A stretch of 60,295 nt of DNA from a virus. Taxonomy: Duplodnaviria; Caudoviricetes. Every line of letters starts with the position of its first letter. Within the stretch, counting starts at the first letter, position 1. The notes below the pieces were generated by a model. It was not told the DNA's origin. It searched no databases and saw nothing but the letters and a program-made list of their open reading frames with translations. The stretch spans positions 1-60,295 of the IMG/VR virus record IMGVR_UViG_3300010048_000004; one strand, given 5' to 3'. Below, piece after piece: positions 6,609-60,100 of this stretch. Position numbers and translations under genes: made by a program.

Positions 6609-6833
6609 ATGGCCGACGACAAACAACTCATCATCACGCGCGCATTCGTGCCACAAGCATTGACGCATGCATGGCTTCAACATCTGCGCGACTTCGACAC
6701 GCTTCATCCTGGCTGTCATTTTGAAATAATGCTGGAAGATTCCGGCCTCACAATGCGCGAGATGATCGACAAGATCACGCTCGATCCTGAGATGAATTTC
6801 ATCTCATTCTTTCCACACAAGCAATCTCAGTAA
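6609..6833 (+). CDS. Hypothetical protein
   Basis: MADDKQL start after GGGGG; conserved-looking WLQHLRDFD motif. Confidence 0.6.
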   Translation: MADDKQLIITRAFVPQALTHAWLQHLRDFDTLHPGCHFEIMLEDSGLTMREMIDKITLDPEMNFISFFPHKQSQ

Positions 6834-6957
6834 TCTGTGTACGGATAAATATAACCCCTACAAAGCTGGGGCTCTTGCGAGCTTGTCCAATAGGGCCATT
6901 AGCCCTATACTCGGGGGTCGGCAAATTGGGCCGATTTCACACATCGAAAGGACAACA

Positions 6958-7188
6958 ATGCCTAATGCAATTTTAACCTGGACTCATGCCCTGGAGAAGA
7001 TGGGAATGCAGCGTGTCGATGCGGAACGCGCTGCCGCCGAATTGTTGGAAGCGATGAACACGACCGCAGCAACGAAATCGGATTTGATCGCACTCAAGTT
7101 TGAACTCTATCGCGGCATGCTGGCGATAGGCGGCACGCTTTGCGCGTTGTTGTTTGCCGCGTTGCATATCTGGCCCCCACATCTTTGA
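6958..7188 (+). CDS. DUF1640/CCDC90-like coiled-coil protein with C-terminal membrane anchor
   Basis: LEKMGM...AATKSDL motif plus hydrophobic C-terminus; TCGAAAGGAC RBS. Confidence 0.65.
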   Translation: MPNAILTWTHALEKMGMQRVDAERAAAELLEAMNTTAATKSDLIALKFELYRGMLAIGGTLCALLFAALHIWPPHL

Positions 7189-7271
7189 GCCGTGAGTGCG
7201 TAGCTCCATGCCGGATAAACGATCATCCGGCATCGGGCGCGATCTTGCGCATCAACCGAAAGGACTAACGA

Positions 7272-7445
7272 GTGCAGAAAAAGATTTCATGGACGCCTGC
7301 GATGCTGGCGCGATTCAAGCTGGCTCTCGCTGACCATAAAGAGAATGACGTGATCGTGTTTGACGGCAACGAGTTTGTGGTCGCTTACGGGCGCTACCTT
7401 GTCGAATATCTGGAGGGTCAATTCCACGCGAGAGGCGATGCATGA
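7272..7445 (+). CDS. Hypothetical protein (57 aa)
   Basis: GTG start after CGAAAGGAC; FDGNEFVVAYGRYLVEYLE. Confidence 0.6.
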   Translation: MQKKISWTPAMLARFKLALADHKENDVIVFDGNEFVVAYGRYLVEYLEGQFHARGDA

Positions 7446-7564
7446 TGCCTGTCTGGAAGATGCTGCTGATCTTCATGGCTGGTATCATCGCTATGGTTAT
7501 TTTCATCGATGTCTCTGCGCACCTAGTAATTCTGGCGGACAAGAATCTGTGGGGCGACAAGTGA
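7442..7564 (+). CDS. Small single-pass membrane peptide (40 aa)
   Basis: ATGA and GTGA coupling on both sides; hydrophobic core. Confidence 0.5.
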   Translation: MMPVWKMLLIFMAGIIAMVIFIDVSAHLVILADKNLWGDK

Positions 7565-7773
7565 AAATGCCGACTGGAGATCAGATCAAAGTGTTGCGTG
7601 AGTCCATCGGGCTCACGCAGCAGCAGCTTGGTGAAGAGCTTCGCCTGCCGCAACTCAATGCCGGGCGCACCGTGCGCAGGTGGGAGGCTGGCGACCGCCA
7701 GCCTTCCGGCACCGTGGTGATGATGCTCGAAATTCTAGCGAAGGCCGCACGCGTGAAAGCGCCGTGGCTATGA
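7561..7773 (+). CDS. HTH regulator (XRE/HigA-like)
   Basis: IKVLRESIGLTQQQLG...TVRRWEAGDRQPSG. Confidence 0.8.
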   Translation: MKMPTGDQIKVLRESIGLTQQQLGEELRLPQLNAGRTVRRWEAGDRQPSGTVVMMLEILAKAARVKAPWL

Positions 7774-7832
7774 CGCGAGAGATGGCGCGTCATAGCCGTG
7801 GCACTTAGGTCACGACAACAAGGGGAAGTACA

Positions 7833-8171
7833 ATGAAGGGACTGAATCGAAGCGCGGTGCTGGCTGCGCTTCTTCTTGTGGGGGCGTGTGCCACCAACGT
7901 GGACATGGTGCCCACCAACGGTTCGCGCGCCGATGGTACGATTGATATGTCATTCCAATATGGAATTTTCCAAAAGCCGATAGTCGATACCGATAAGGCG
8001 ATGGCCCAGGCTCAGGAGACTTGTCATGGCTGGGGCTACACGGGCGCGCGTCCGTTCGGTGGATCAAACCAAACGTGCCTTGTGCGCAACGGCTACGGCA
8101 ATTGCCTGCGTGTTCAAGTCGATGTGCGCTTTCAATGCACAGGCTCACCCTCAACAGGTAACGGCAACTAA
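7833..8171 (+). CDS. YecR-like lipoprotein
   Basis: Lipobox VGAC; GSRADGT and CxxWGYxGAxPFGG motifs. Confidence 0.75.
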   Translation: MKGLNRSAVLAALLLVGACATNVDMVPTNGSRADGTIDMSFQYGIFQKPIVDTDKAMAQAQETCHGWGYTGARPFGGSNQTCLVRNGYGNCLRVQVDVRFQCTGSPSTGNGN

Positions 8172-8181
8172 GTAGAAGCCG

Positions 8182-8216
8182 GTCACCGCCGTCCATGTGG
8201 AAAGGGCGGCGGTGAC
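8182..8216 (+). terminator. Stem-loop after the lipoprotein gene
   Basis: GTCACCGCCGTCC / GGGCGGCGGTGAC stem. Confidence 0.5.
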
Positions 8217-8254
8217 TTCAATAACTTTAATCTTAACAGTGAAAAAGGACGCTC

Positions 8255-8617
8255 ATGAAATTCTCTTTTATGCTTTCAACTGCCGCCGTGCTGACGGCAC
8301 TAGTGACACCGGCACATGCAGGATTTTTTAGTGGGAATGATCTTCTCAAGAATTGCACATCATCAATTCCACAAGAACAAAGCTGGTGTCTTGGGTATGT
8401 TTCAGGTGCAACCGACGCATTGCAAAGCGTTCGCGCTATGATGTTCGGACATGAAGATTTGTGTCCACAATATGGAACAGAAGTAAGCCAAGTCAAAGAT
8501 GCTGTGGTGCTCTATCTTCAGAATCATCCTGCAGAACGCACCTTGGGCGGCGATACGATAGTCATTGAAGCAATTTCCACCAATTGGAAATGCAACACGC
8601 TTCCGGCAACAAAATAG
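8255..8617 (+). CDS. Rap1a/Tai-family T6SS immunity-like exported protein
   Basis: Signal peptide ending AHA; SGNDLLxxC, CLGYVSGATD, C-P, YLQNHP and terminal C pattern. Confidence 0.75.
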   Translation: MKFSFMLSTAAVLTALVTPAHAGFFSGNDLLKNCTSSIPQEQSWCLGYVSGATDALQSVRAMMFGHEDLCPQYGTEVSQVKDAVVLYLQNHPAERTLGGDTIVIEAISTNWKCNTLPATK

Positions 8618-8654
8618 CGGCGGCGGTGATCTCAACATCAACAGAGAGGACATT

Positions 8655-8867
8655 ATGAGTTTCAAACCAGAAGTGATTGCAGACGACACCGGCCAGTGGC
8701 TTAGCAACGGCTTACGCTTTGCCACCAGGGAAGAGGCCGAAGCACAGGTGAAAGATTTGGAGTGGCGCTGGCATGCGGTGACTGACACCCGCGTGATCGA
8801 GTGTGACGATCCAGTGAGTCATCGCTTTGACTTCAAGTCGCGGGCCATCGAAACGGTGGAGCCGTGA
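8655..8867 (+). CDS. Hypothetical protein
   Basis: GAGGA RBS; MSFKPEVIADD..NGLRFATREEA. Confidence 0.7.
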   Translation: MSFKPEVIADDTGQWLSNGLRFATREEAEAQVKDLEWRWHAVTDTRVIECDDPVSHRFDFKSRAIETVEP

Positions 8868-9181
8868 TTTACTTCCGCATGTTGCACCCCCACGTCGATC
8901 CGGAGGTGCTGGGCTTCATCCCGACCTTTGTCAGCGAGCTAGACCCGCGCCCCGCCCGCGAGCAATTCGATGAGCATTACGCCCATGGCGGGGGCTGGCA
9001 TCTCATGCCGCACTGGGCCCTGATCGACGGGCCCGGCTATGTCATCAAGTACCCCGGCGACCGCCCGCTGCAGCCGCTGGCGCTCGCCAACTTCCGGCGC
9101 GAGACCATCTGCTTTTATGACGGTTCCTTTGTCGCGATTTTCCAAACGGACGGCAGCTTTGAGGTGGACCGCATGGATTGA
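8864..9181 (+). CDS. Hypothetical protein
   Basis: GTGA coupling; 105 aa. Confidence 0.7.
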   Translation: MIYFRMLHPHVDPEVLGFIPTFVSELDPRPAREQFDEHYAHGGGWHLMPHWALIDGPGYVIKYPGDRPLQPLALANFRRETICFYDGSFVAIFQTDGSFEVDRMD

Positions 9182-9553
9182 CCACCACCCCCAAAGGTAA
9201 GTGGACTAAATTACAGTAGTGTGAGTGTGAAACGGAACTTGATGCCCCGGTCAGAAAATGGCCGGGGTATTTTTTTGCGCAGCGTGATGTCTGGACAAAA
9301 CCAACGGTCGAAACGCGTGATGTTTTGTCTGACATCACGCATGGGTGGGCGGCACACAGCGCCGGACGCGATGACAGATTATCAGCGAGAGGGGTGCGCG
9401 AGCGAACCTAACAGCACCCGGCTCGATCTTAACAGGGCCCCAGGAGGCCCTCCAAAGCCCGCTGATGGGTGTTTTGGGATGGGACCGACAGGCGCGCACC
9501 AGGATCGACTCACACCCGGCACCCCGGCCTCGAAATCAGAAAATTGGCTCGCC

Positions 9554-9896: not shown

Positions 9897-11321
9897 ATGG
9901 CTCAAGTTTTGGACAAGGAATTTCTCAAGACCGTCAAATGCCCGACGGACAAGGCCCAGCAAATTTATGCGGATTCCGACTACACCAATCTCATTTTGGT
10001 GGTGGCCAAGTCGGGCAAGAAAACGTGGCATTACAAGTACCGGCTTCCCACCGATAAGACGAAAACCCGCCTGCCGAAGATCGGCACCACGCTCGAATAC
10101 AAGACGCGGGAAATCGTCTGGGCGTGCGAAAAGCTCGCTGCCATCCGTGACGCGCTTAAGGCTGGAAAGGACCCCGAGGCGGTCGCGGCCAGTAAAATTC
10201 CGGAAAAGACATTTGGCGAACTGTGGAATGTGAAATGGGAGCAGCACACCAAGTTCCTTGATAGCGCCGATGAGGTGAAACGCATCATGGAGGTTGATGT
10301 CATCCCGGCCATCGGCAAGGTGCTCCTCAGCACCCTGGAGATCAGCCACGCCAAGCTGGTGACCGACCCCATCAAGTTTGGCACCGGCAAATATGCGGAC
10401 GGCTCGCCCAGAACCGAGCCCGCGCCCATCCAGGCCAACCGGGTTTTTGAGCAGGTGCGGGCGACGTGCCGGTGGGGGATCAAGAACGGTTACTTCCCCA
10501 AGGGCATGGGCAATCCCATCGAACTGATGGAGCGCCCCACCAAGAAGGAGCGCGACGATGACAAAGATCAGCGCTTCCTTGACCGGGGCGAGATCAGGAA
10601 ATTCTGGCTCATGATCGGCACCGTCATGTCCCATCCCCTGGCCCACGAATCCAACGTGCCCGACATTCTGCGGCTAGAGCTTTGCACTGGCCAGCGCCCA
10701 TCTGAATGCGCCTCCATCCGGGTGAAGGACATCAATCAAGAGACGCGGATGTGGACCCTCAACAGGGAGATGGTGAAGAACAACCGCAAGCACACGGTCT
10801 TTCTGAATGACATGGCGTGGGCGATTGTCGAGCCTCGCATCGCTGCCGCACATGGCAAGAGCAAATACCTCTTTCCCAACAGCAAGGGCGAATGGACCAA
10901 AGTCGATAACATCGATCAGGCGGTGAGCCGTCTCTGCGCGCTTCCCAAAAGCGAAATGGATAAGCCGGAAGATGAGCGCGACCGGACCAGCAATCGCATT
11001 GGCATCGCCAAGTTCACGCCTCATGCGCTGCGCCACACTTTCGTGACTCAGATGCTCAACGATGAGAACGAGGAGGAACTAGGCTTCTCCGAGAAAACCG
11101 TCAGCCGTCTTGTCAATCACGTGAGCGGCGTGAGCAAGGATGGCGAGCAGAAGCCAAAAAAGCAGACCGTCACCGGCAAGGTCTATGACCACAACACTTA
11201 TGAACGCACAATGGTGCGCGCAATGATGAAGTGGAATAACTGGCTGCAGAAGGTGATCAGCGAAGAGCCGCAAGCTCCCAAGATGCCAATCTTCCGCCTT
11301 ATCAAGAACGAGGCCGCGTGA
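9897..11321 (+). CDS. int: Tyrosine recombinase (integrase)
   Basis: N-terminal arm-binding domain; TGQRPSE, HALRH, VNH and VYD catalytic motifs. Confidence 0.95.
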   Translation: MAQVLDKEFLKTVKCPTDKAQQIYADSDYTNLILVVAKSGKKTWHYKYRLPTDKTKTRLPKIGTTLEYKTREIVWACEKLAAIRDALKAGKDPEAVAASKIPEKTFGELWNVKWEQHTKFLDSADEVKRIMEVDVIPAIGKVLLSTLEISHAKLVTDPIKFGTGKYADGSPRTEPAPIQANRVFEQVRATCRWGIKNGYFPKGMGNPIELMERPTKKERDDDKDQRFLDRGEIRKFWLMIGTVMSHPLAHESNVPDILRLELCTGQRPSECASIRVKDINQETRMWTLNREMVKNNRKHTVFLNDMAWAIVEPRIAAAHGKSKYLFPNSKGEWTKVDNIDQAVSRLCALPKSEMDKPEDERDRTSNRIGIAKFTPHALRHTFVTQMLNDENEEELGFSEKTVSRLVNHVSGVSKDGEQKPKKQTVTGKVYDHNTYERTMVRAMMKWNNWLQKVISEEPQAPKMPIFRLIKNEAA

Positions 11322-11367: not shown

Positions 11368-11399
11368 ATGGGCGGTGATCTCTCACCGCCCATTTTTTT
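11368..11399 (+). terminator. Intrinsic terminator after int
   Basis: ATGGGCGGTGA / TCACCGCCCAT plus T-tract. Confidence 0.85.
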
Positions 11400-11414
11400 C
11401 GAAAGGACGACTTA

Positions 11415-11696
11415 ATGAAAATAACATTCTATCACACCCGCCATTCGTGCGGGCATTCGGTGTACTGGGCTGATCCAGATGTTGGCATGGGAGTCGCCAA
11501 TTGGCCGTGCCCGTGGTGCGGCGCGGAGACCGGCATTCATGTAGAGGACGACATGATTTCCATGAGCGGGGTGCTGGTGGCGCGCCGCTACAATCCGGAC
11601 GGCACCTTTCCGTGGCCGGACGACTGGAAGAAGCCGGATAAAATCATTGTGCGGCACATGACCGGCGACGTGTGCTGTGATGGAGCGAAACAATGA
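11415..11696 (+). CDS. Cys/His-rich hypothetical protein
   Basis: TCGAAAGGAC RBS; HSCGH and CPWC. Confidence 0.65.
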   Translation: MKITFYHTRHSCGHSVYWADPDVGMGVANWPCPWCGAETGIHVEDDMISMSGVLVARRYNPDGTFPWPDDWKKPDKIIVRHMTGDVCCDGAKQ

Positions 11697-12387: not shown

Positions 12388-12419
12388 AAAGGACTGGGTG
12401 AGGGTAACACCCGGTCCTT
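12388..12419. terminator. Terminator between convergent operons
   Basis: AAGGACTGGGTG / CACCCGGTCCTT stem. Confidence 0.65.
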
Positions 12420-12455
12420 CCTCGCCTGTCCAGGCTAGTCAGCGAGGAGTGTCGC

Positions 12456-24741: not shown

Positions 24742-24777
24742 AAAAGAAAAACCCGCCACGCTTTCGCGTGACGGGTT
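24742..24777 (-). terminator. Intrinsic terminator ending the minus-strand cassette
   Basis: AACCCGTCACGC-GAAA-GCGTGGCGGGTT then TTTCTTTT on the minus strand. Confidence 0.85.
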
Positions 24778-24807
24778 ATTCCGTGTGCGGATTAAACCGC
24801 GCTGCGA

Positions 24808-25011
24808 TTATTTTTCGCGTAATAACATCTCAAGATAACCAGGAATGTTTTTGTTCAAGGCATCCCATGCATTGCGCGCGTCGTCGTGGTTATTAAATTC
24901 GAATACAACAGTTGCCGCTATCTGCGCATTACTCACTTGATAGTATGAGCGAGGCTCGCGGTCTTTTTTCCATGCTTGTCCGAGAAACCATTTTGGTTTT
25001 GGCGTGCTCAT
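24808..25011 (-). CDS. Cassette hypothetical protein
   Basis: GAGGA RBS, ATGA coupling. Confidence 0.6.
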   Translation of the reverse strand: MSTPKPKWFLGQAWKKDREPRSYYQVSNAQIAATVVFEFNNHDDARNAWDALNKNIPGYLEMLLREK

Positions 25012-25364
25012 ATTTCCTCGCAAGAATTTTCTTCGTCTGAATTTTCTTCTGGCCATAAGAAAAATTCATCGCGGTCACTCCATTCCATGCCGTGCGGAAT
25101 CAGCCAGCAATCGCCATTCTGGTAAACGGAATATTTGATTCCGTTTTCATCCGTCACGCATGCATTGTCGCAAATATTGTCCCATGCTTCCCAATACCAT
25201 TCGTGATTCGGGCCCGTTTCGAGAATTTTCCAATCATCTGCATCGACTCCGGAAACGTCACGCTCGCGATTGATAAACGAGTTTGCAAAATCGCGCGGAA
25301 TATGAATGCCGCGTGATTCATTCAACCAGAGAATGGGCTCAGGCTTCGAAATTTGAGTCGTCAT
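25008..25364 (-). CDS. Cassette acidic, Trp-rich protein
   Basis: ACTCGAAAGGAC RBS; acidic C-terminus. Confidence 0.7.
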   Translation of the reverse strand: MTTQISKPEPILWLNESRGIHIPRDFANSFINRERDVSGVDADDWKILETGPNHEWYWEAWDNICDNACVTDENGIKYSVYQNGDCWLIPHGMEWSDRDEFFLWPEENSDEENSCEEI

Positions 25365-25365
25365 G

Positions 25366-25587
25366 TTAGTTTGTCCTTTCGAGTATCGCGGCCAACCGAT
25401 CAAGTTTGTCCGCGTGCTGTGAGAGTATCGTGATTAGTTTCGCGTGCACGTGATTAGGAATGGTTGACGTGCCCGAAACGTAGCGTGAAACAGTGCGCCG
25501 GTTTATTTGGAGTTCATCGGCAAGTACAGTTTGCCAACTGGGCCCAAATAATTCTTTGCCTATTGTTTCGAATTGCAGCGGAGTCAT
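25366..25587 (-). CDS. HTH DNA-binding protein
   Basis: LFGPSWQTVLADELQINRRTVSRY. Confidence 0.75.
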   Translation of the reverse strand: MTPLQFETIGKELFGPSWQTVLADELQINRRTVSRYVSGTSTIPNHVHAKLITILSQHADKLDRLAAILERTN

Positions 25588-25787
25588 GAGTGCGTATATC
25601 CGTCAGTCTCAATTCCGATTTGCATTCCGCACCATGGCACCATAACGCAACCAAGTAGCGGGCTATTCCATGCGCCATCCAAAAACTGATTCAGTGTTTT
25701 TGGATTTGCGCTTTCTTTGCATTGGCGAGTGTAAAGATTCATGAGTGAATCCCATTGCGCTGGCGTTACGTCTTTTTCAGTAAGCAT
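25584..25787 (-). CDS. Cassette hypothetical protein
   Basis: AAAGGAC RBS; C-terminal GMQIGIETDGYTHS. Confidence 0.65.
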   Translation of the reverse strand: MLTEKDVTPAQWDSLMNLYTRQCKESANPKTLNQFLDGAWNSPLLGCVMVPWCGMQIGIETDGYTHS

Positions 25788-25801
25788 TGTTTGATGTCCT
25801 T

Positions 25802-25975
25802 TTAGTTTGCTGGTTTACGATTAAGCGCGCGATTAATGTATGCATCTAATTCGGCGCGATTCTCACGGATAAAATTGCGCATGCTTAAGCGTGAGCTTCG
25901 TTGCCAATTGTAAAGGCCTTCATCGTTTAAAACCCAAAGCTCACGCTCTTTATCATTCAATGTTTTGTTTTTCAC
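25802..25975 (-). CDS. Cassette hypothetical protein (57 aa, not in ORF track)
   Basis: GTG start after ACTCGAAAGGAC; LWVLNDEGLYNW. Confidence 0.65.
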   Translation of the reverse strand: MKNKTLNDKERELWVLNDEGLYNWQRSSRLSMRNFIRENRAELDAYINRALNRKPAN

Positions 25976-26055
25976 ACTCTGTCCTTTCGAGTTAGTTGTT
26001 TGAGAATTGCGATTATGATTCCGAGTCCGATCAATTCTAGAATTGCTTCCAACAT
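25972..26055 (-). CDS. 27-aa hydrophobic membrane peptide
   Basis: MLEAILELIGLGIIIAILKQLTRKDRV; TAATG and GTGA coupling. Confidence 0.45.
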   Translation of the reverse strand: MLEAILELIGLGIIIAILKQLTRKDRV

Positions 26056-26870
26056 TAGCGCGTCACGTTGAAAACTTTTTCGTTTGCGCCTTCGTTGAAT
26101 GCGTCGCGGTACTCATGCCATACGGAGTCGATAAGCTCTGCGCGTTCTTCGCGGGCCTTTTGTATGTCGTGATAGTGTTTGCGAATGTTCGCGCGCAACG
26201 TTTTACAAATTGCTGGCGCGTCAACTGTGATTTGCTTTTGTGCTTTTCGAAGCTCTGCGCAGATTTGCAGAATGTGTTTTCGGTCTGATTTTATATTTTC
26301 TCCTAAGTCATAATATTGACTGCCAGCCTGCCATGCTTCGTCATACTCGCGCGATTTTTCCGCTGCATATTCTGCGAGCGAATCTGCAGTGCGCGCCGCG
26401 TCACGTTTTGCAGAGTCTGCATCGTCACAAGAATACAGATCACGAAAATCCAATGCTGCCGAATGTTCACCGCATGTATCGGACCAACCGCGTTTTGAAT
26501 TTGAACCTTCACGATAACCGGGAATAAAAATTGCTTTCCCGTTTCGCGCTGGCAATTGGTAGACGCAAGCGCGGTATACTTCGTCCCAGTCACCAGCGCG
26601 AATATACCAGCCCTGATGTGAATCACGAGAAACGCGCAATTCATCTTGCCAGCCAACAAAGCGTAAGCCTATTTCATCGGGGTTACACCATTGCAAGCCT
26701 TGCGCATCCGGTTTGAAGCATTGTGCACCGTGCGCAATTTCGCGCGGATAGCGCTTCACGTTGTTTGCAACATCCTCACGTGCACGCTTAAGCGATGTAA
26801 CGGCATTGCCACACGGATATTTTCTTTGCCAGTAAGTAAACGCGTCTTTTAATTCTTCAGTGACAGTCAT
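26055..26870 (-). CDS. Cassette hypothetical protein
   Basis: 271 aa; ACTCGAAAGGAC RBS. Confidence 0.75.
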   Translation of the reverse strand: MTVTEELKDAFTYWQRKYPCGNAVTSLKRAREDVANNVKRYPREIAHGAQCFKPDAQGLQWCNPDEIGLRFVGWQDELRVSRDSHQGWYIRAGDWDEVYRACVYQLPARNGKAIFIPGYREGSNSKRGWSDTCGEHSAALDFRDLYSCDDADSAKRDAARTADSLAEYAAEKSREYDEAWQAGSQYYDLGENIKSDRKHILQICAELRKAQKQITVDAPAICKTLRANIRKHYHDIQKAREERAELIDSVWHEYRDAFNEGANEKVFNVTR

Positions 26871-26950
26871 TTGGTTTTGTCCTTTCGAGTACGACGCAAT
26901 AGCGCGTCTAAATGCGCAACGCGTTTTCGCACGTTGCGCATTCCGTCACG

Positions 26951-28390
26951 TTATGCAGTTTCCGTTATTGTTTCAGCTTCATTGCTTTCGCTTAGCGTGA
27001 AAACATTTAGCTCACGCGCGAGTCTTTCAATTTCGCTCCACACGATATGGTGACAACCAGCGCGGAAGTTTCCGCTTGTCCATATCGTATCGATTCCGAA
27101 ATGTCCGACTCGTATCGAGTGTCCGTTGCGTTGCCATGCGATTGCGTCAACTGGAAAATGTCCCGCGCTTGTTTGGGATTCCAATTGCACGCTTGCGCGT
27201 TGCTTTATCAGCTTGATGAAACGAAACGCGCGTATCGCATGAGTGAGCGGCACGCTTGCGCCGCGCGACGTTTGTAACTCGCCGCCTGTTATTATGCCTT
27301 CCTCACTGCGAGTAACATCGATTGCACGAAGTAGCGTTACGGTTGAATGTGGCGCGTATGCGCCACGGTCGCCGCGAAACCATGCTTGCGCGCGTTCTAA
27401 TTCCTCACGCTCACGCTCTGCGTGTTCGATTGCAAGTGCAGTGTTGTAGGCTTCATTGCATTGTGCGGCGATTGCAGCAAATTTTTCGCGCGCTTGATTT
27501 TTGAAACGTGGTAGTTCGGAAAGTTTGGAGCATGTGTTTCCAAATTCTCGTAAGTGATATGATCCTATGCATTCATTGCTGTTAAATGCTTCTACTAAAA
27601 AAACTTTGCAATCGCGAAAGTTTTTGACGAGGTGGCGCAAGTATCGATTTGCATTCTTACGCGCTTCACTTTTTTCTTGCCGAGTAATTTCAGCGCGTAC
27701 CAATTGTAAGACTTCCCAAACCTTGCGCGCTTGTTTCTCGCGCTTGACTGATTTGAGAGCACGGTGTGAGTGATAAAGTTTTTTTGCTTCATTTAGCGTT
27801 TGCCTGTTGCGGAAAATTTGCGCAAGATGTTGGACCGTTCCTGAATCGTCAAGCGTGCTGATAATTTTGCCATAACGAATCTGCTCGCGTTTGTTCTCCT
27901 CTTTCGCTTCTAACTCCTCTTTCTCGCGCTGTTTAATTGCTTGAGCTTTTATTGTCTCAAATCGGTCAATGGGATTTTTGATTTTGCAAAGTGAGAGTAG
28001 ATACACGCCAACATCGCTACTCATTTCTTCCGCATGTTCGATACAAAAGTTTATGATTTGTTTTGGCGCGGATGCTTTCGATTCTCCCGTGCCGTGCTCA
28101 TATGAGTCGAGTATGTGATTTAGTTTGGTAAGCGCTGGCACGTGATAGAATGTACCGCTCACGGCATTGTGTGCGTATCTTTGATGCCGCGTTGTGCTGA
28201 TGCTGTAAGAGTCTGTTGCGAGTAGCGCGGTCTTATCTTTCATAATGCGGCCGACAACGAAGTGACTGCCGTATGAGTACAGAGTTTGGCCGTTGAAGAA
28301 AAAGTTTCCATTGTTGCTTTTTCCACTGGGCTGATTCTGTTGCGCCCAAACATGTGCAACCATGGAATTTTCAAAAACAGTGCGAGTCAT
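26951..28390 (-). CDS. Cassette large hypothetical protein
   Basis: 479 aa; VAHVWA..YSYGSHF N-terminus, TSRGA..GCH C-terminus; AAAGGAC RBS. Confidence 0.8.
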   Translation of the reverse strand: MTRTVFENSMVAHVWAQQNQPSGKSNNGNFFFNGQTLYSYGSHFVVGRIMKDKTALLATDSYSISTTRHQRYAHNAVSGTFYHVPALTKLNHILDSYEHGTGESKASAPKQIINFCIEHAEEMSSDVGVYLLSLCKIKNPIDRFETIKAQAIKQREKEELEAKEENKREQIRYGKIISTLDDSGTVQHLAQIFRNRQTLNEAKKLYHSHRALKSVKREKQARKVWEVLQLVRAEITRQEKSEARKNANRYLRHLVKNFRDCKVFLVEAFNSNECIGSYHLREFGNTCSKLSELPRFKNQAREKFAAIAAQCNEAYNTALAIEHAEREREELERAQAWFRGDRGAYAPHSTVTLLRAIDVTRSEEGIITGGELQTSRGASVPLTHAIRAFRFIKLIKQRASVQLESQTSAGHFPVDAIAWQRNGHSIRVGHFGIDTIWTSGNFRAGCHHIVWSEIERLARELNVFTLSESNEAETITETA

Positions 28391-28422
28391 TTGTGATTTG
28401 TCCTTTGCGTTGTGAGTGAGAG

Positions 28423-28623
28423 TTAGCGTGCGTTGTGGTTATGCATTGCAATTGCTGTTGCGCATGCATCATCAAAGTCGTCTGCGAAATAATCAGCGCA
28501 TGCATGAAGTTTGCCGCGATAAAAAATCCGCGCGCAAAATTCATTTGCATCATTGCGTGAGTAAACGCGTGCAAACGTGTTTTGAGAATCCGGAATCGTG
28601 TGAAACAAAACCTTGCGTGACAT
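28423..28623 (-). CDS. First gene of the cassette, hypothetical
   Basis: ACTCGAAAGGAC RBS. Confidence 0.65.
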   Translation of the reverse strand: MSRKVLFHTIPDSQNTFARVYSRNDANEFCARIFYRGKLHACADYFADDFDDACATAIAMHNHNAR

Positions 28624-28768
28624 AACGTTGAGTCCTTTCGAGTTAATCTGTGTGCGGATTAGTTTGCCGCACGCGGGATATCAGCCCTGAGCACCATTGC
28701 TCAAGGCTTGTCTCAAGTTTGGGACAGCACACTTATATATAGCAAGAGGCCAAAAATGGATTTTTCAA

Positions 28769-35291: not shown

Positions 35292-35444
35292 AGCCTGAAA
35301 AGCGACCGACAGATTTCCAGAGGCAATTGGTGGTGTGGGCCGATCAATGTGAGGCTGGCGAGACGCCAAAAACGAGTCTTTACTATCGCCTGACGCGGGA
35401 AATCGAGGATGCCCGCGCGGCGATCAGGCGGGAGAGGGAGAGAA

Positions 35445-35726
35445 ATGAATCACGCGATAGCCAGTAGTTTCTCGCGTCACATTATGTTCTCTTATATTTT
35501 TCAGGCGCTGACCTTGCTTGTGGCTGGTTTTGGTGCCGTGGAAGTTTGGTATGGGCTAGGTCATTCCGGTTTCTTTCGCATGGCCATATTGGTTCTGTGC
35601 ACAGTCGTGAATGTGGCTATGTTTTTCTTTCATTTTTACATTCGCGCGCGTTTTCGCTTTCTCAAGGAACTCAATGAGCGGGCTGACAGCCTGGACTGGA
35701 CTACCCGGTATAAGCCGCCTGCTTAG
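35445..35726 (+). CDS. Two-helix membrane protein
   Basis: Two hydrophobic segments; purine-rich RBS. Confidence 0.55.
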   Translation: MNHAIASSFSRHIMFSYIFQALTLLVAGFGAVEVWYGLGHSGFFRMAILVLCTVVNVAMFFFHFYIRARFRFLKELNERADSLDWTTRYKPPA

Positions 35727-36040
35727 CCTTGCAGGAAGTTGCTTATGACGCTAAGGCTTAACGACGCGGCAAGGCGTGAGTGCCGCGTTACAAATAACCG
35801 CGTCAGCCGGGGCAGGCTGGTTTCTTTCGTCCTTTCGAGTGTTGACGGTCGGGCCCCGGCATTTCCTCTTTTCCGTACATCCGTGGTACATCTTCTGTTT
35901 CCCGGCTTCGCCCCTCATCAGCGTGAAGGCTCAGCCGGGGGAGGGGCTGGCGGACGCGGTGTTGAGTGACGCATCCGCCAGTCGTTTCATGGGAGAAGGA
36001 TTTTCCGGATTAAATAACGGATTTTTAAATCTGGAAATTT
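35727..36040 (+). ncRNA. Candidate multi-hairpin non-coding RNA
   Basis: At least six stem-loops; G-U pairs favour the + strand; one loop carries GTCCTTTCGAGT. Confidence 0.45.
35875..35889. promoter_or_regulatory. GTAC-N7-GTAC operator box
   Basis: GTAC-ATCCGTG-GTAC. Confidence 0.55.
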
Positions 36041-36052
36041 GAGGGTCGCGAC

Positions 36053-36424
36053 ATGTCGGCACTGACTGATCTTTTGCAACGAGACCATGTAACGTTTGCC
36101 GAAGTTTCCAGATTGCCGGGTGCTAAAGGCGACACTGCCATGATGCTGAAAGGTGATAAATTTTCCAACATCGTGCTGTGGCCTAATCTTAGTCATGAGA
36201 TTGTAACTGAAATTAAGGCGCTGCTCGCGGATGGCACTGTTGAACTGAAGCCGACTATTGTTTTGACGTATTTAATCGACGGAGTTACCTGCAAACTTCC
36301 GTTGGTTAAAGCAGTGCGGCATTACGAATCGCCGCATTGGTTTCCAGTTGTGCTCAAGCTGAAAAATAAATCAGTGCTTTCCAGCACCCACCAGAAAGTT
36401 GCTGTCAAAACGTGTACGGCATGA
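36053..36424 (+). CDS. Hypothetical protein
   Basis: GAGG RBS; YLIDG...LP...PHWFPV. Confidence 0.65.
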   Translation: MSALTDLLQRDHVTFAEVSRLPGAKGDTAMMLKGDKFSNIVLWPNLSHEIVTEIKALLADGTVELKPTIVLTYLIDGVTCKLPLVKAVRHYESPHWFPVVLKLKNKSVLSSTHQKVAVKTCTA

Positions 36425-36437
36425 ATAAGGCGGTGAC

Positions 36438-36782
36438 ATGCGGCGTGTGCTGGTGTGCGGTGGGCGTTCTTTCAAGGATCGGGAGTTTCTTTTCCTGGTG
36501 CTCGACCAGCATCTCGCGCGCGATGATGTGATTATTTCTGGCGCGGCGCGTGGTGCCGACCGGCTGGCGATTGAATATGCCGTGATGCGCCGTCTTGCTT
36601 GTGAGCGGTTCCCCGCCGACTGGGCGCTTTACGGCAAGGGTGCCGGACCAATCCGCAACCAGCAAATGCTGGACAAGGGCAAGCCCGATCTGGTGATTGC
36701 ATTTCCTGGCGGCACTGGCACCGCCGATATGGTTGCGCGCGCCAAGCTGGCGAAGATCGAAGTCAGGGAGATCGCGCGCTAA
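36438..36782 (+). CDS. YspA/SLOG-like (DUF2493) protein
   Basis: VLVCGGR, SGAARGAD, AGPIRNQQML, AFPGGTGT. Confidence 0.85.
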   Translation: MRRVLVCGGRSFKDREFLFLVLDQHLARDDVIISGAARGADRLAIEYAVMRRLACERFPADWALYGKGAGPIRNQQMLDKGKPDLVIAFPGGTGTADMVARAKLAKIEVREIAR

Positions 36783-57195: not shown

Positions 57196-60100
57196 TGGCC
57201 CTCCCACCTCTTCCATCAGGTGCTGTTCTTGCAGATCAACCGCAGGTACCGCCACCAGAACCAACCAAAACGAAACTTCCTCCATTGCCAGCCGGAGCTA
57301 CGGCTGTACCTGCAGCACCAGCAGCGCCGGTTGCGAAAGCAGACACCGGCCCGATCATCAACATTCCGCCGCCTTCTCAACAGAAAGATACGTTGCTCGA
57401 TACTTCGACTGCCATTGTGCAGGATATGACCGGCACAATGGACGCATCATGGGAGCAGTTGAAAAACGACGCGATGACGGCGTGGGGAACGGACGAAAAC
57501 TCTTACGCCAATAAAGGTTTTTGGGATTTGGCGAAGGTGACTTGGAAGAAACAAGTTGCTGCCGGGATGATCCCTGTCGATGCTTTCAATTTGGTGATGT
57601 CCATTCCTGCCGGGATTATGCGCGGCACCGCTGTAAAGGCTGCAGCACATACTGTTCTTGCGGCGCGCGATTTTTTCAATCTTGGATTGCCGGAAGGCAC
57701 ACCGATCACAAAATACAATCTGTTCACTGGTCAGACCACGACGGACAAATATCACCGCTACACGCAGCAAGAGATGGAAGATGCGGTGAATACCGGGATT
57801 ATGTTCGCTCTGCCGGAGGAGAGTGCACCGCTCCTGGCTGGTGAAGGGCTGGCTGAGCTTGGCAAGCTGGCCGAAGGCGCGCACACGCCACTCGATATTC
57901 GCGGGCCAGGACGGGCGGAGACCGTGGCGCGTCCAGAACGCGAGAGCATGATTGAAAAGGCACAGCGGGAAAACAGAGAAATCGATGCGGCGAAAGCCGC
58001 CAAGGCCGGGCCGCTGACGGCAAAGAAGCCGACCACATTTGATCTTCGTGGCCGTGCTGCGCTTGAGCCAGAGACTGGCCCCGCCGATCTTCGTGGCGGC
58101 ACGCAACCGGCTCCGAAGAAGGGAACGGTTGCCGAAGCCAAGCGCAGGCTTGCCGCTCCGTTCCAGGCCGATGAGCCAGGAACGATTTTCGAGCGCGGTT
58201 ATGCCGCGCGACTGGTCAATCCGGCAGATGAGGACAGCACGTTTGCGCATCTCCTGCAGCGCCCGTTTTATAAGCCGGGCGAGCGCCGCCCATGGCGCAA
58301 TAAGGATCAGGAATGGGCGAGCAGAAAAGTTGGCAAGGCATTTCAACATGATGAAGTAACGCGCGAACGGGCGCTGGAGGAAATAGAACGCAAGGGAAAA
58401 ACTATCAGTGACCTGGGTGAAGAAGCCGTGACCAGTGCTGCGGAGACTGCAGCACTTAGCGGCGAGGGCCGTCGCCTGGGTATGAAATTGGTCAAGCAGC
58501 GTTTGTCTGGCCGCGTTGGCCGCATTGTCGGTGGTGTGCAAAATTATATCAGCAACAGATCATTTTATAACACGATGAAAAATTTCATGCGCTCGCGTTG
58601 GGCGACAGCCAAGCCATTTTTCGATGAAGCATTTGATTTTGGCGGCGGCACACAGGCGTTGATCACTCAGTTCGAAGGACATGTTGCCGATACATCAAGC
58701 AGGCTTACGGAAGCGCGCCAAGCGCGTGCTGCCGCAGACGATGCGGTTGAGGCGTCGAAAACCATGGCGCACCCGGTGCATGAAGAATCGTTAAATACCG
58801 CCAGCAAAAATTTAAGAGCGGCACAAGACGCGGTTTCCGATGCGGAGCGCAATTATCAGTTTGCCACACAGAAAAGTTCCGGCGCTGATCCCATGAATGT
58901 CTATGGCTCAGCCGCGCGGCAACAGGCGATCCGTGAAGCTGAATCTGCGCTTGAAGCTGCGCAAGGCAAGCTCGATGACGCCACTATGGCCCATGAAAAT
59001 GCTCAGCGCCGGTTGAATATGGCGCGTGAAAGCGCAACCAAGGGAGCGGAAGCGGAGCGTGTCGCTGCTCACGAGCGCCTCACGCTTTCTGAAAAGGAAC
59101 ATGAAGCAGCCTGGGCGCGGCTACGCACGGCCCAGCAGCATCAGCGCTTGAATGTGAAAGGCGGCATCTGGTCGCCATTGATCGAACGCCTTCTAAACAA
59201 TGAAAATGTCCAGAAAGGCATTCATCGCGGCATCCAGATCGAAAAAAATCTGGCTGATGCCAGAAACAAGCCGCTCAACATCAAGGAATGGGCTCTGGCG
59301 GAAGAGCCGAAGGGCGATTTCGATATGCGCAATCCGCCCAGGGTGCAACAAGTACCGACGCTCAAATTGATGCATTCGGCGGTTGAAGGTCTCGATGACA
59401 TCCTTGAGGATTCACGTGACAAGCTTACAGGAAAAATTCATCTCAATAAGTTTACCGAGTCGATTATGGAGTTGCGCAGGTCACTCTCCGACGAATTGAA
59501 GCGTCTCACCAGAGAGAGCAATCCGGCTTACGCCAGGGCGCTGGAGATATGGTCAGGGCAATCGCGATTGCTCGATGCGATGTATAAAGGGCTGCGCGGG
59601 TTTTATGAGATTGGTTCCGAAGAACTTAAGGATTATCTGCATGGCGAAGCGCACCCCGAAACCGGCAAGCGTCAGGGCGGTTTGTCAGCCGATGAACGCG
59701 AGGCGTATCGCATCGGTGTGACCAAGGCGATCACCAAGAATGCCCAAAAGGGCCCGGCGCAAGCGTTGCGCGAATCCAAGAACATTGTCGAAAACGAGGA
59801 GATGCAGAAAAAAATGCGTCTCGCGATTGGCGATCCAAAAGCGGCGGATGAATTTATTCGCATGGCGCAGGATGAAGTGGACATGGCCCAGCGCGCTGGT
59901 CCGCAATTTTTCGGTCCACGCACTGCCGGGCGTTTGGTGGGAGAGCAAGAGCTTAGGCGGGTCGATGAAGGCCTTGCCGATGGGGCAGTAAACGCCGTGC
60001 GAACCGGACTGATGTCCTGGCTTAATCCGCATTATATGGGAATGCGTTTTGGGGTGTCGTATCTTGATAGCCTTCTTTCCGAGATGCAGGATTCGCGGCG

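Follow-up and report, generated by a model that had tools for sequence, protein, structure and literature searches.

A 12-nt sequence, GTCCTTTCGAGT, that occurs as an exact match at positions 25373, 25981, 26879, 28632 and 35829 of the window (the whole stretch of DNA analysed, 60,295 bases) is in four of these places the ribosome-binding site of a minus-strand gene, and lies the fifth time, read as its own antisense, at the tip of a predicted plus-strand hairpin in a long gap ahead of the virion genes. This fifth copy is not there by chance. We tentatively propose that the hairpin belongs to a leader RNA that presents the anti-tag, pairs with the tagged messages and blocks their initiation after late transcription has started, a reading that we hold to be a serious possibility, if short of a probable one.

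The window is a complete virus record with direct terminal repeats and represents an uncultured soil phage, 98% of whose sampled words are contained in one soil metagenome DNA run. An integrase (9897-11321), an excisionase-like gene, a RusA resolvase and a primosomal protein, together with a terminase, a major head protein and tail fibres on the virion side, mark it as a temperate tailed phage. Most of its small genes belong to no known family in PHROG, Pfam, NCBIfam or PADLOC, and a tRNA search of the window returned none. The tag, the operon that bears it and the two plus-strand sites that match it or its complement over 12 nt are located as follows.

24750..28643, minus strand: low-GC (44-48%) operon bearing the tag, ending at a classical terminator (24777-24750)
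24750-24777, minus strand: this terminator, strong and classical, with a 12-bp stem, a GAAA loop and a clean T run
28632..28643, minus strand: tag copy, 8 nt upstream of the ATG at 28623 of the first operon gene (66 aa)
26879..26890, minus strand: tag copy, 8 nt upstream of the ATG at 26870 of an operon gene of 271 aa (phrog_8188)
25981..25992, minus strand: tag copy, 5 nt upstream of the GTG at 25975 of an operon gene of 57 aa
25373..25384, minus strand: tag copy, 8 nt upstream of the ATG at 25364 of an operon gene of 118 aa
35829..35840, plus strand: fifth exact copy; the plus-strand RNA reads GUCCUUUCGAGU, the perfect antisense of the ACUCGAAAGGAC tag
11399..11410, plus strand: TCGAAAGGACGA, before the ATG at 11415 of a 93-aa gene; 12-nt complement of 35827-35838, with a 2-nt shift

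A preliminary description made from the sequence had reported the 12-mer at four ribosome-binding sites plus a fifth copy, and exact matching at all five positions bears this out. Its placement of the four copies 5-8 nt upstream of minus-strand genes is equally sound: the four operon copies read ACTCGAAAGGAC on the minus strand, with spacings to the start codon of 8, 5, 8 and 8 nt from the lowest position to the highest, and the copy at 25373 falls within the 3'-terminal part of the preceding ORF. No function for the tagged genes emerged from Pfam, NCBIfam or PADLOC, and their PHROG families are all of unknown function; seven of the eight operon proteins have no family in the first three collections, in which the eighth, encoded by a 72-aa ORF at 25366-25584, finds weak sub-cutoff matches only.

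The mismatch profile of the 12-mer has a sharp step, with five exact matches, none with one mismatch and five with two (three of them at start regions). With up to one mismatch allowed, 0.13 occurrences are expected, and none of 100 shuffles reached five copies; a fifth exact copy in particular is expected by chance only about 0.004-0.007 times per genome. Around the four start-site copies the flanks are unrelated and identity stops exactly at the borders of the 12-mer, which points to the 12-mer as a single unit under selection rather than to a duplicated segment. When the stretch 35726-36068 (343 nt) was scanned for k-mers, the only 12-mer in it with at least three complementary copies in the genome was this one, with four.

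Shorter versions of the tag extend the set of candidate targets. Besides TCGAAAGGACGA, the sites TCGAAAGGAC at 6944 and CGAAAGGAC at 7257 are present, so the complementarity of the loop to these three places that had been described earlier stands. So does the claim that AAAGGAC precedes further genes: the heptamer has 17 copies in the window, 11 of which sit 4-9 nt ahead of a start codon: those of int and its downstream neighbour, of three genes at 6.9-8.3 kb and of six operon genes. The 11 start-linked sites are confined to 6.9-11.4 kb and 25.3-28.6 kb, whereas the virion block at 36-57 kb has none; GGAG-type sites are used by most other genes, including all virion genes. By this division, the tag serves as an extended ribosome-binding site that is private to one set of genes, all of them non-structural. 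One AAAGGAC copy lies 4 nt before the ATG of a 120-aa protein with a signal-peptide-like N-terminus (8255-8617, plus strand), for which 'Rap1a-like' is the label of the preliminary description. Another (12388-12420, plus strand), downstream of the excisionase-like gene, provides the 5' arm of a terminator-like hairpin and is not a ribosome site.

The fifth copy lies in a 326-nt gap (35727-36052) between a plus-strand membrane-protein gene (35445-35726) and a plus-strand gene at 36053; the genes 3' of the gap are phrog_7134, that for a SLOG-domain protein and then virion genes. On the minus strand, as described before, no start codon follows it: there is no ATG, GTG or TTG within 5-10 nt. Its surroundings fold on the plus strand as follows.

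35806..35860, plus strand: H2, a three-tier hairpin with outer stem GCCGGGGC/GCCCCGGC, inner helix GGCUG/CGGUC and apical stem UUCG/CGAG
35830..35835, plus strand: apical hexaloop UCCUUU of H2, the complement of the Shine-Dalgarno core AAAGGA
35861..35874, plus strand: U-rich tail AUUUCCUCUUUUCC after H2, possibly a weak intrinsic terminator

In this predicted fold 39 nt lie within the outer stem (35806-35813/35853-35860) and 26 nt within the inner helix. The outer stem and inner helix are those of the preliminary description, to which the apical stem and the UCCUUU hexaloop can now be added. In each of four transcript contexts, every base of the hexaloop has an unpaired probability of 1.00. 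Of the 12-mer, one half (6 of 12 nt) is presented in the apical loop and the other is paired in the apical stem. Two G-U pairs in the inner helix and one U-G pair in the 4-bp apical stem make the fold specific to the plus strand. That the inner helix pairs only on this strand, through G-U, had been claimed before and agrees with the energies: the plus-strand fold reaches -30.1 kcal/mol (z -3.32), with none of 200 shuffles as good, and the minus-strand fold of the same region -19.7 kcal/mol (z -1.61), with 16 of 200 as good.

An H2 of merely structural use, as a terminator or as a helix of the kind that follows the phage RNA motif discussed below, with the 12-mer an old recombination leftover or a rare coincidence, is a possible but doubtful alternative. 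The U-rich tail fits it, and a sub-hairpin together with this tail is terminator-like; that sub-hairpin (35848-35860) plus AUUUCCUCUUUUCC is also all that passes a terminator scan. H2 as a whole does not have the form of a classical terminator, with 39 nt inside its 8-bp G+C stem and AUUUCCUCUUUUCC as its tail; a short loop of 4 nt and a clean T run characterise the terminator that closes the tagged operon, and H2 has neither. Coincidence is at odds with the expected number of fifth copies given above and with the position of the 12-mer exactly at the apex, where the Shine-Dalgarno complement falls in the loop. A junction scar is hard to reconcile with the flanks, since the two arms around the fifth copy are complementary to each other. 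The structural reading does draw support from the four further hairpins of the gap, for none of which a target is known, and from a hairpin at the same place in certified members of the RNA family, which has variable loops and no anti-tag.

That family is Proteo-phage-1 (Rfam RF03044), listed as Gene; sRNA, with 82 model positions and a gathering score of 42 bits. At gathering scores Rfam has no match anywhere in the window; at E-value thresholds RF03044 gives the best Rfam match in the gap, directly 5' of and overlapping the first bases of H2.

35726..35808, plus strand: Proteo-phage-1-like RNA element, RF03044, 29.8 bits (below threshold), covering model positions 1-82 of 82
35763-35789, plus strand: hairpin H1, inside the Proteo-phage-1-like match

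The match has an E-value of 4.9e-5 for the 60-kb genome, and at E <=0.001 the model hits none of 14 control genomes; its score remains below the 42-bit cut-off, against 72-94 bits in five certified phages. It ends at the first bases of H2 and includes H1 as well as the loop and 3' tail sequence common to the family. A weak Rfam match to Termite-flg (25.5 bits) was put down to G+C hairpins resembling each other by chance. A search with a family-consensus pattern found at least 120 places in viral contigs, of which 80 were fetched and 73 are distinct. In certified members the motif is directly followed by another hairpin, whose loops are highly variable, then by further helices and, about 200 nt on, by an intrinsic terminator; holin families lie 3' of the motif in 4 of 10 certified loci (12 ORFs, PHROGs). 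The certified motif forms the 5' part of a structured stretch of about 300 nt (for example, 1425-1790 of locus L055), and some certified subtypes (L027, L033) have tRNA-like 3' halves after the motif instead.

These features suggest that the certified stretch is a late-operon leader like the 6S region of lambda. The RF03044 family may represent the 5' part of late or lysis-operon leaders, with the gap of this phage as a diverged member. The likeness consists in a full-length plus-strand alignment, a hairpin directly after it and a long structured gap before a new block of genes. The differences are that certified members precede holins (at the loci counted above), whereas phrog_7134, the SLOG-domain gene and virion genes follow here, that the score here falls short of the cut-off, and that certified members lack the anti-tag: no 11-mer or longer word with at least three complementary copies occurs in the leaders of any of the five certified RF03044 phages, which indicates that an anti-tag loop does not characterise the family. 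A literature search on Proteo-phage-1 yielded no papers. In this phage the gap probably encodes the leader RNA of the late operon, and read as a Proteo-phage-1-like leader it makes plus-strand transcription over the 12-mer likely.

The same leader invites a model with the direction of control reversed, in which tagged messages pair with the H2 loop, alter the fate of the leader and so couple late expression to the level of the accessory operon. The complementarity is identical to that of the antisense model, and control of termination would be expected in a leader by analogy with the certified members and their terminator. Pairing of the top 12 nt, however, spares the 8-bp G+C basal stem, so that an effect on termination is not obvious, and no precedent was found; we regard this direction of control as highly improbable.

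Besides H1 and H2, the gap contains these elements.

35898..35942, plus strand: hairpin H3, -23.4 kcal/mol, z -3.34; its 3' arm repeats TCAGCCGGGG(G)AGG, also found at the start of H2
35945..35983, plus strand: hairpin H4, -25.1 kcal/mol, z -4.10, 0 of 200 shuffles as good
36002..36037, plus strand: AT-rich inverted repeat, -9.8 kcal/mol, with ATCTGGAAAT-type repeats, just before the gene at 36053

The 14-mer direct repeat TCAGCCGGGG(C/G)AGG occupies 35803-35816 and 35931-35944, 128 nt apart; its first copy forms the 5' arm of H2, its second the 3' arm of H3. Since both CCCCGGC partners are available to each of these arms, the region may fold in alternative ways. A tandem duplication within the gap was rejected except for this repeat, its local alignment score being matched by 44 of 300 shuffles. 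The ATCTGGAAAT-type motif occurs three times around the start of gene 36053, twice inverted (35311-35321, 36029-36039 and 36103-36113), and may be an operator; the AT-rich inverted repeat might serve as a promoter or an operator. A search of the plus strand between 35000 and 36600 revealed no sigma-70-like promoter. A -10-like hexamer, TATAAG, lies at 35709-35714, 12 nt before the RF03044-like match and with no good -35 at the usual spacing; it possibly marks the start of the leader transcript.

The gap had been described as intergenic. This needs qualifying in that an 88-aa ORF with a GTG start, 35776-36042 on the plus strand, is a called protein in the public record and spans H2. Were this ORF a real gene, the 12-mer would lie in its frame by accident. 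In addition to being called, the ORF ends 10 nt before the next gene and has the best coding score among the six frames of the gap. That score is nonetheless -0.03, the lowest beside ten other plausible genes (+0.03 to +0.31); the GTG start has no usable Shine-Dalgarno sequence and is buried in H1, the RNA-family match covers the first third of the ORF, and the protein is an orphan, with no relatives among 5.8 billion clusters and no family match. A coding gap is accordingly very unlikely. A decayed minus-strand gene was likewise rejected: a tblastn search of 35300-36100, which made up a database of about 800 nt, with all 115 predicted proteins gave noise only among the matches listed, which run to about gene 73 of the 115 and have a lowest E-value of 0.025, and the stretch in which such a gene would lie is occupied by the plus-strand RNA motif match.

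The 12-mer might instead be a protein site, bound by a translational repressor or activator on RNA or by a regulator on DNA, with the fifth copy as a fifth site or a decoy. The common DNA orientation of all five copies would agree with this, as would their exact conservation, since the lack of one-mismatch variants fits a footprint; moreover, the authors who described a comparable tag in Cluster K mycobacteriophages leave open, where they consider its partner, whether this is RNA or protein (PMC3203893). On the other side, the minus-strand fold at the fifth copy is weak (its z-score is given above), neither a minus-strand gene nor a promoter was seen there, and at 35726-35808 the minus strand runs antisense to a plus-strand RNA motif. 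The fixed spacing to start codons points to use at the RNA level, and Pfam, NCBIfam and PADLOC reveal no candidate regulator among the eight operon proteins. We therefore consider a protein site unlikely. A structured plus-strand RNA over 35829 is made more likely than it could seem in the preliminary description by the strand asymmetry of the fold, the adjoining full-length, sub-cutoff RF03044 match and the absence of a minus-strand relic among the matches listed.

Judged by sequence, the same design recurs independently in an unrelated phage group, Cluster K. Its start-associated sequence (SAS), the 13-mer GGGATAGGAGCCC, lies 3-7 nt before the starts of non-structural genes; it is asymmetric, contains the Shine-Dalgarno core and was given no known function in the sections that deal with it (Pope et al. 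2011, PMC3203893). One SAS copy is reported there in reverse orientation, away from any start, and the partner of the sequence is left open between RNA and protein; an antisense RNA reading of the reverse copy is not among the proposals in those sections of PMC3203893. In Mycobacterium phage Anaya (JF704106), which has 16 forward SAS sites and one reverse, we found that the reverse copy lies in the apical loop (CCUCCUAUCC, 10 nt) of a long hairpin (59848-59898) in the gp96-gp97 gap, which is 385 nt long and structured (z -5.96). The region recurs in 138 Mycobacterium phage records. Among eight Cluster K phages aligned, the mirror loop is exact in five, degenerate in two and absent in one, and all five Cluster K genomes searched carry 13-16 forward tags; since some of these phages keep the tag and have lost the mirror loop, the two do not obligatorily go together. 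Two of the 19 pairs of the hairpin show compensatory changes across seven phages, and many one-sided changes remain G-U compatible on the transcribed strand.

The tag of the soil phage resembles SAS in being an asymmetric 12-mer with a Shine-Dalgarno core, in having four exact copies 5-8 nt before starts, in its restriction to non-structural genes and in the single mirror copy in a hairpin loop within a structured gap. It differs in sequence (GGGATAGGAGCCC in Cluster K versus ACTCGAAAGGAC here, which do not belong to the same sequence family), in the phylum of the host and in number, with 13-16 copies in Cluster K and four exact plus seven short ones here.

Closer to the soil phage itself, few comparisons are available. 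No close relative was found when 35400-36450 was compared with phages by blastn; the neighbouring protein (36053-36421) has no close relative in viral or metagenome contigs and found only itself in a protein database. The best terminases in viral, genome and metagenome contigs are either 52-53% identical, on short contigs that lack the upstream region, or 34% identical, and a pattern for the phage's own leader subtype has no match in viral contigs. Relatives of the 479-aa operon protein were found at eleven loci, with ordinary ribosome-binding sites; the tag is present at none of 13 loci in distant phages sharing this gene, and has no exact match in five records. Two of these distant phages show different repeats, with three copies of GAGGTGCAGTCATG at gene starts (461, 769 and 2862; G004) and five of CACTACAGGGGGGTC within 6678-9456 (G003), and no clear antisense copy of either repeat was seen in them. 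The sequencing runs listed as containing the phage comprise two of DNA, one of them its probable source, and none of RNA; the reads of the two over H2 show no usable variation. The best reading is thus limited by its dependence on a single genome with no close relatives.

On the antisense reading, the gap 35727-36052 would be a structured plus-strand leader ahead of the late (virion) genes, opening with the Proteo-phage-1-like element and continuing directly into H2, whose tip would present UCCUUU within a 12-nt exact antisense of the ACUCGAAAGGAC tag of the four minus-strand accessory genes; as many as seven further non-structural genes are preceded by shorter versions of the tag, which the anti-tag would also match. 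The leader RNA would accumulate either as a short transcript, released by termination or processing, or within the late message, at its 5' end. The H2 loop of this RNA would kiss the AAAGGA of tagged messages and then zip to 12 bp (about -22 kcal/mol), and the duplex would block the 30S subunit and perhaps invite cleavage, so that the onset of late transcription would silence the tagged genes. We infer, rather than observe, the transcription of the leader, its abundance, the pairing in the cell, the timing of the operon and the effect on translation. A duplex-energy scan, of the kind proposed in the preliminary description, failed to single out the tag sites: two of the four rank in the top five, one is 27th and one lies beyond the top 30. 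This non-discriminating scan, together with the sub-cutoff RF03044 match, the missing sigma-70-like promoter, the half of the 12-mer that is paired in the apical stem and the ORF called across H2, counts against the antisense reading, as do the lack of the tag in distant phages with the 479-aa gene, the lack of an anti-tag in the five certified RF03044 phages and the loss of the mirror loop in some Cluster K phages.

Temporal shut-off at the start regions of many early messages, as proposed here, is the task of RegA and RegB in phage T4, proteins that act on early messages at ribosome-binding sites; the agent proposed here is RNA, whereas those of T4 are proteins. Short structured transcripts from a late or immunity leader are known in the 6S RNA of lambda (the pR'-tR' late leader) and in the CI RNA of P4, which acts via complementary repeats; neither has a sequence or model match here (Rfam, window and gap). 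The c4 antisense RNA of P1 and P7 is described, in the part of PMC12197685 devoted to it, as a structured phage RNA whose loops pair with repeated sites around a ribosome-binding site and block translation. The tip of H2 is alike in complementing four start regions over 12 nt, exactly. Unlike c4, which lies upstream of its targets in one operon and is released from the precursor by processing, it has its candidate targets on the opposite strand, 7-10 kb away and in four or more genes; furthermore, c4 RNA uses two seeds, and there is one here. The c4 model (RF01695) has no match at gathering scores in the window and none at E <=10 in 35650-36100. Phage antisense RNAs found in a literature search were single-target only, such as c4, and none of the papers found described a switch in which one RNA acts on many ribosome-binding tags. 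What is new here, and partly supported, is the combination of c4-like antisense control with SAS-like tags.

In summary, should the pairing fail, H2 would be an ordinary leader or terminator hairpin accompanied by a curious coincidence of sequence. If it works, one hairpin would control many genes through a shared ribosome-binding address, which would be a simple and portable timing switch; the start-associated sequences of mycobacteriophages, a fifteen-year-old puzzle, would gain a function, and the orphan RNA family Proteo-phage-1 a first functional context, in late-operon leaders. It is conceivable, though we would put it forward with some doubt, that SAS-type tags in general are addresses for a phage antisense RNA, with a late leader that silences an accessory or early set of genes and Cluster K phages built to the same design; if true, this would be an all-RNA counterpart of T4 RegA.
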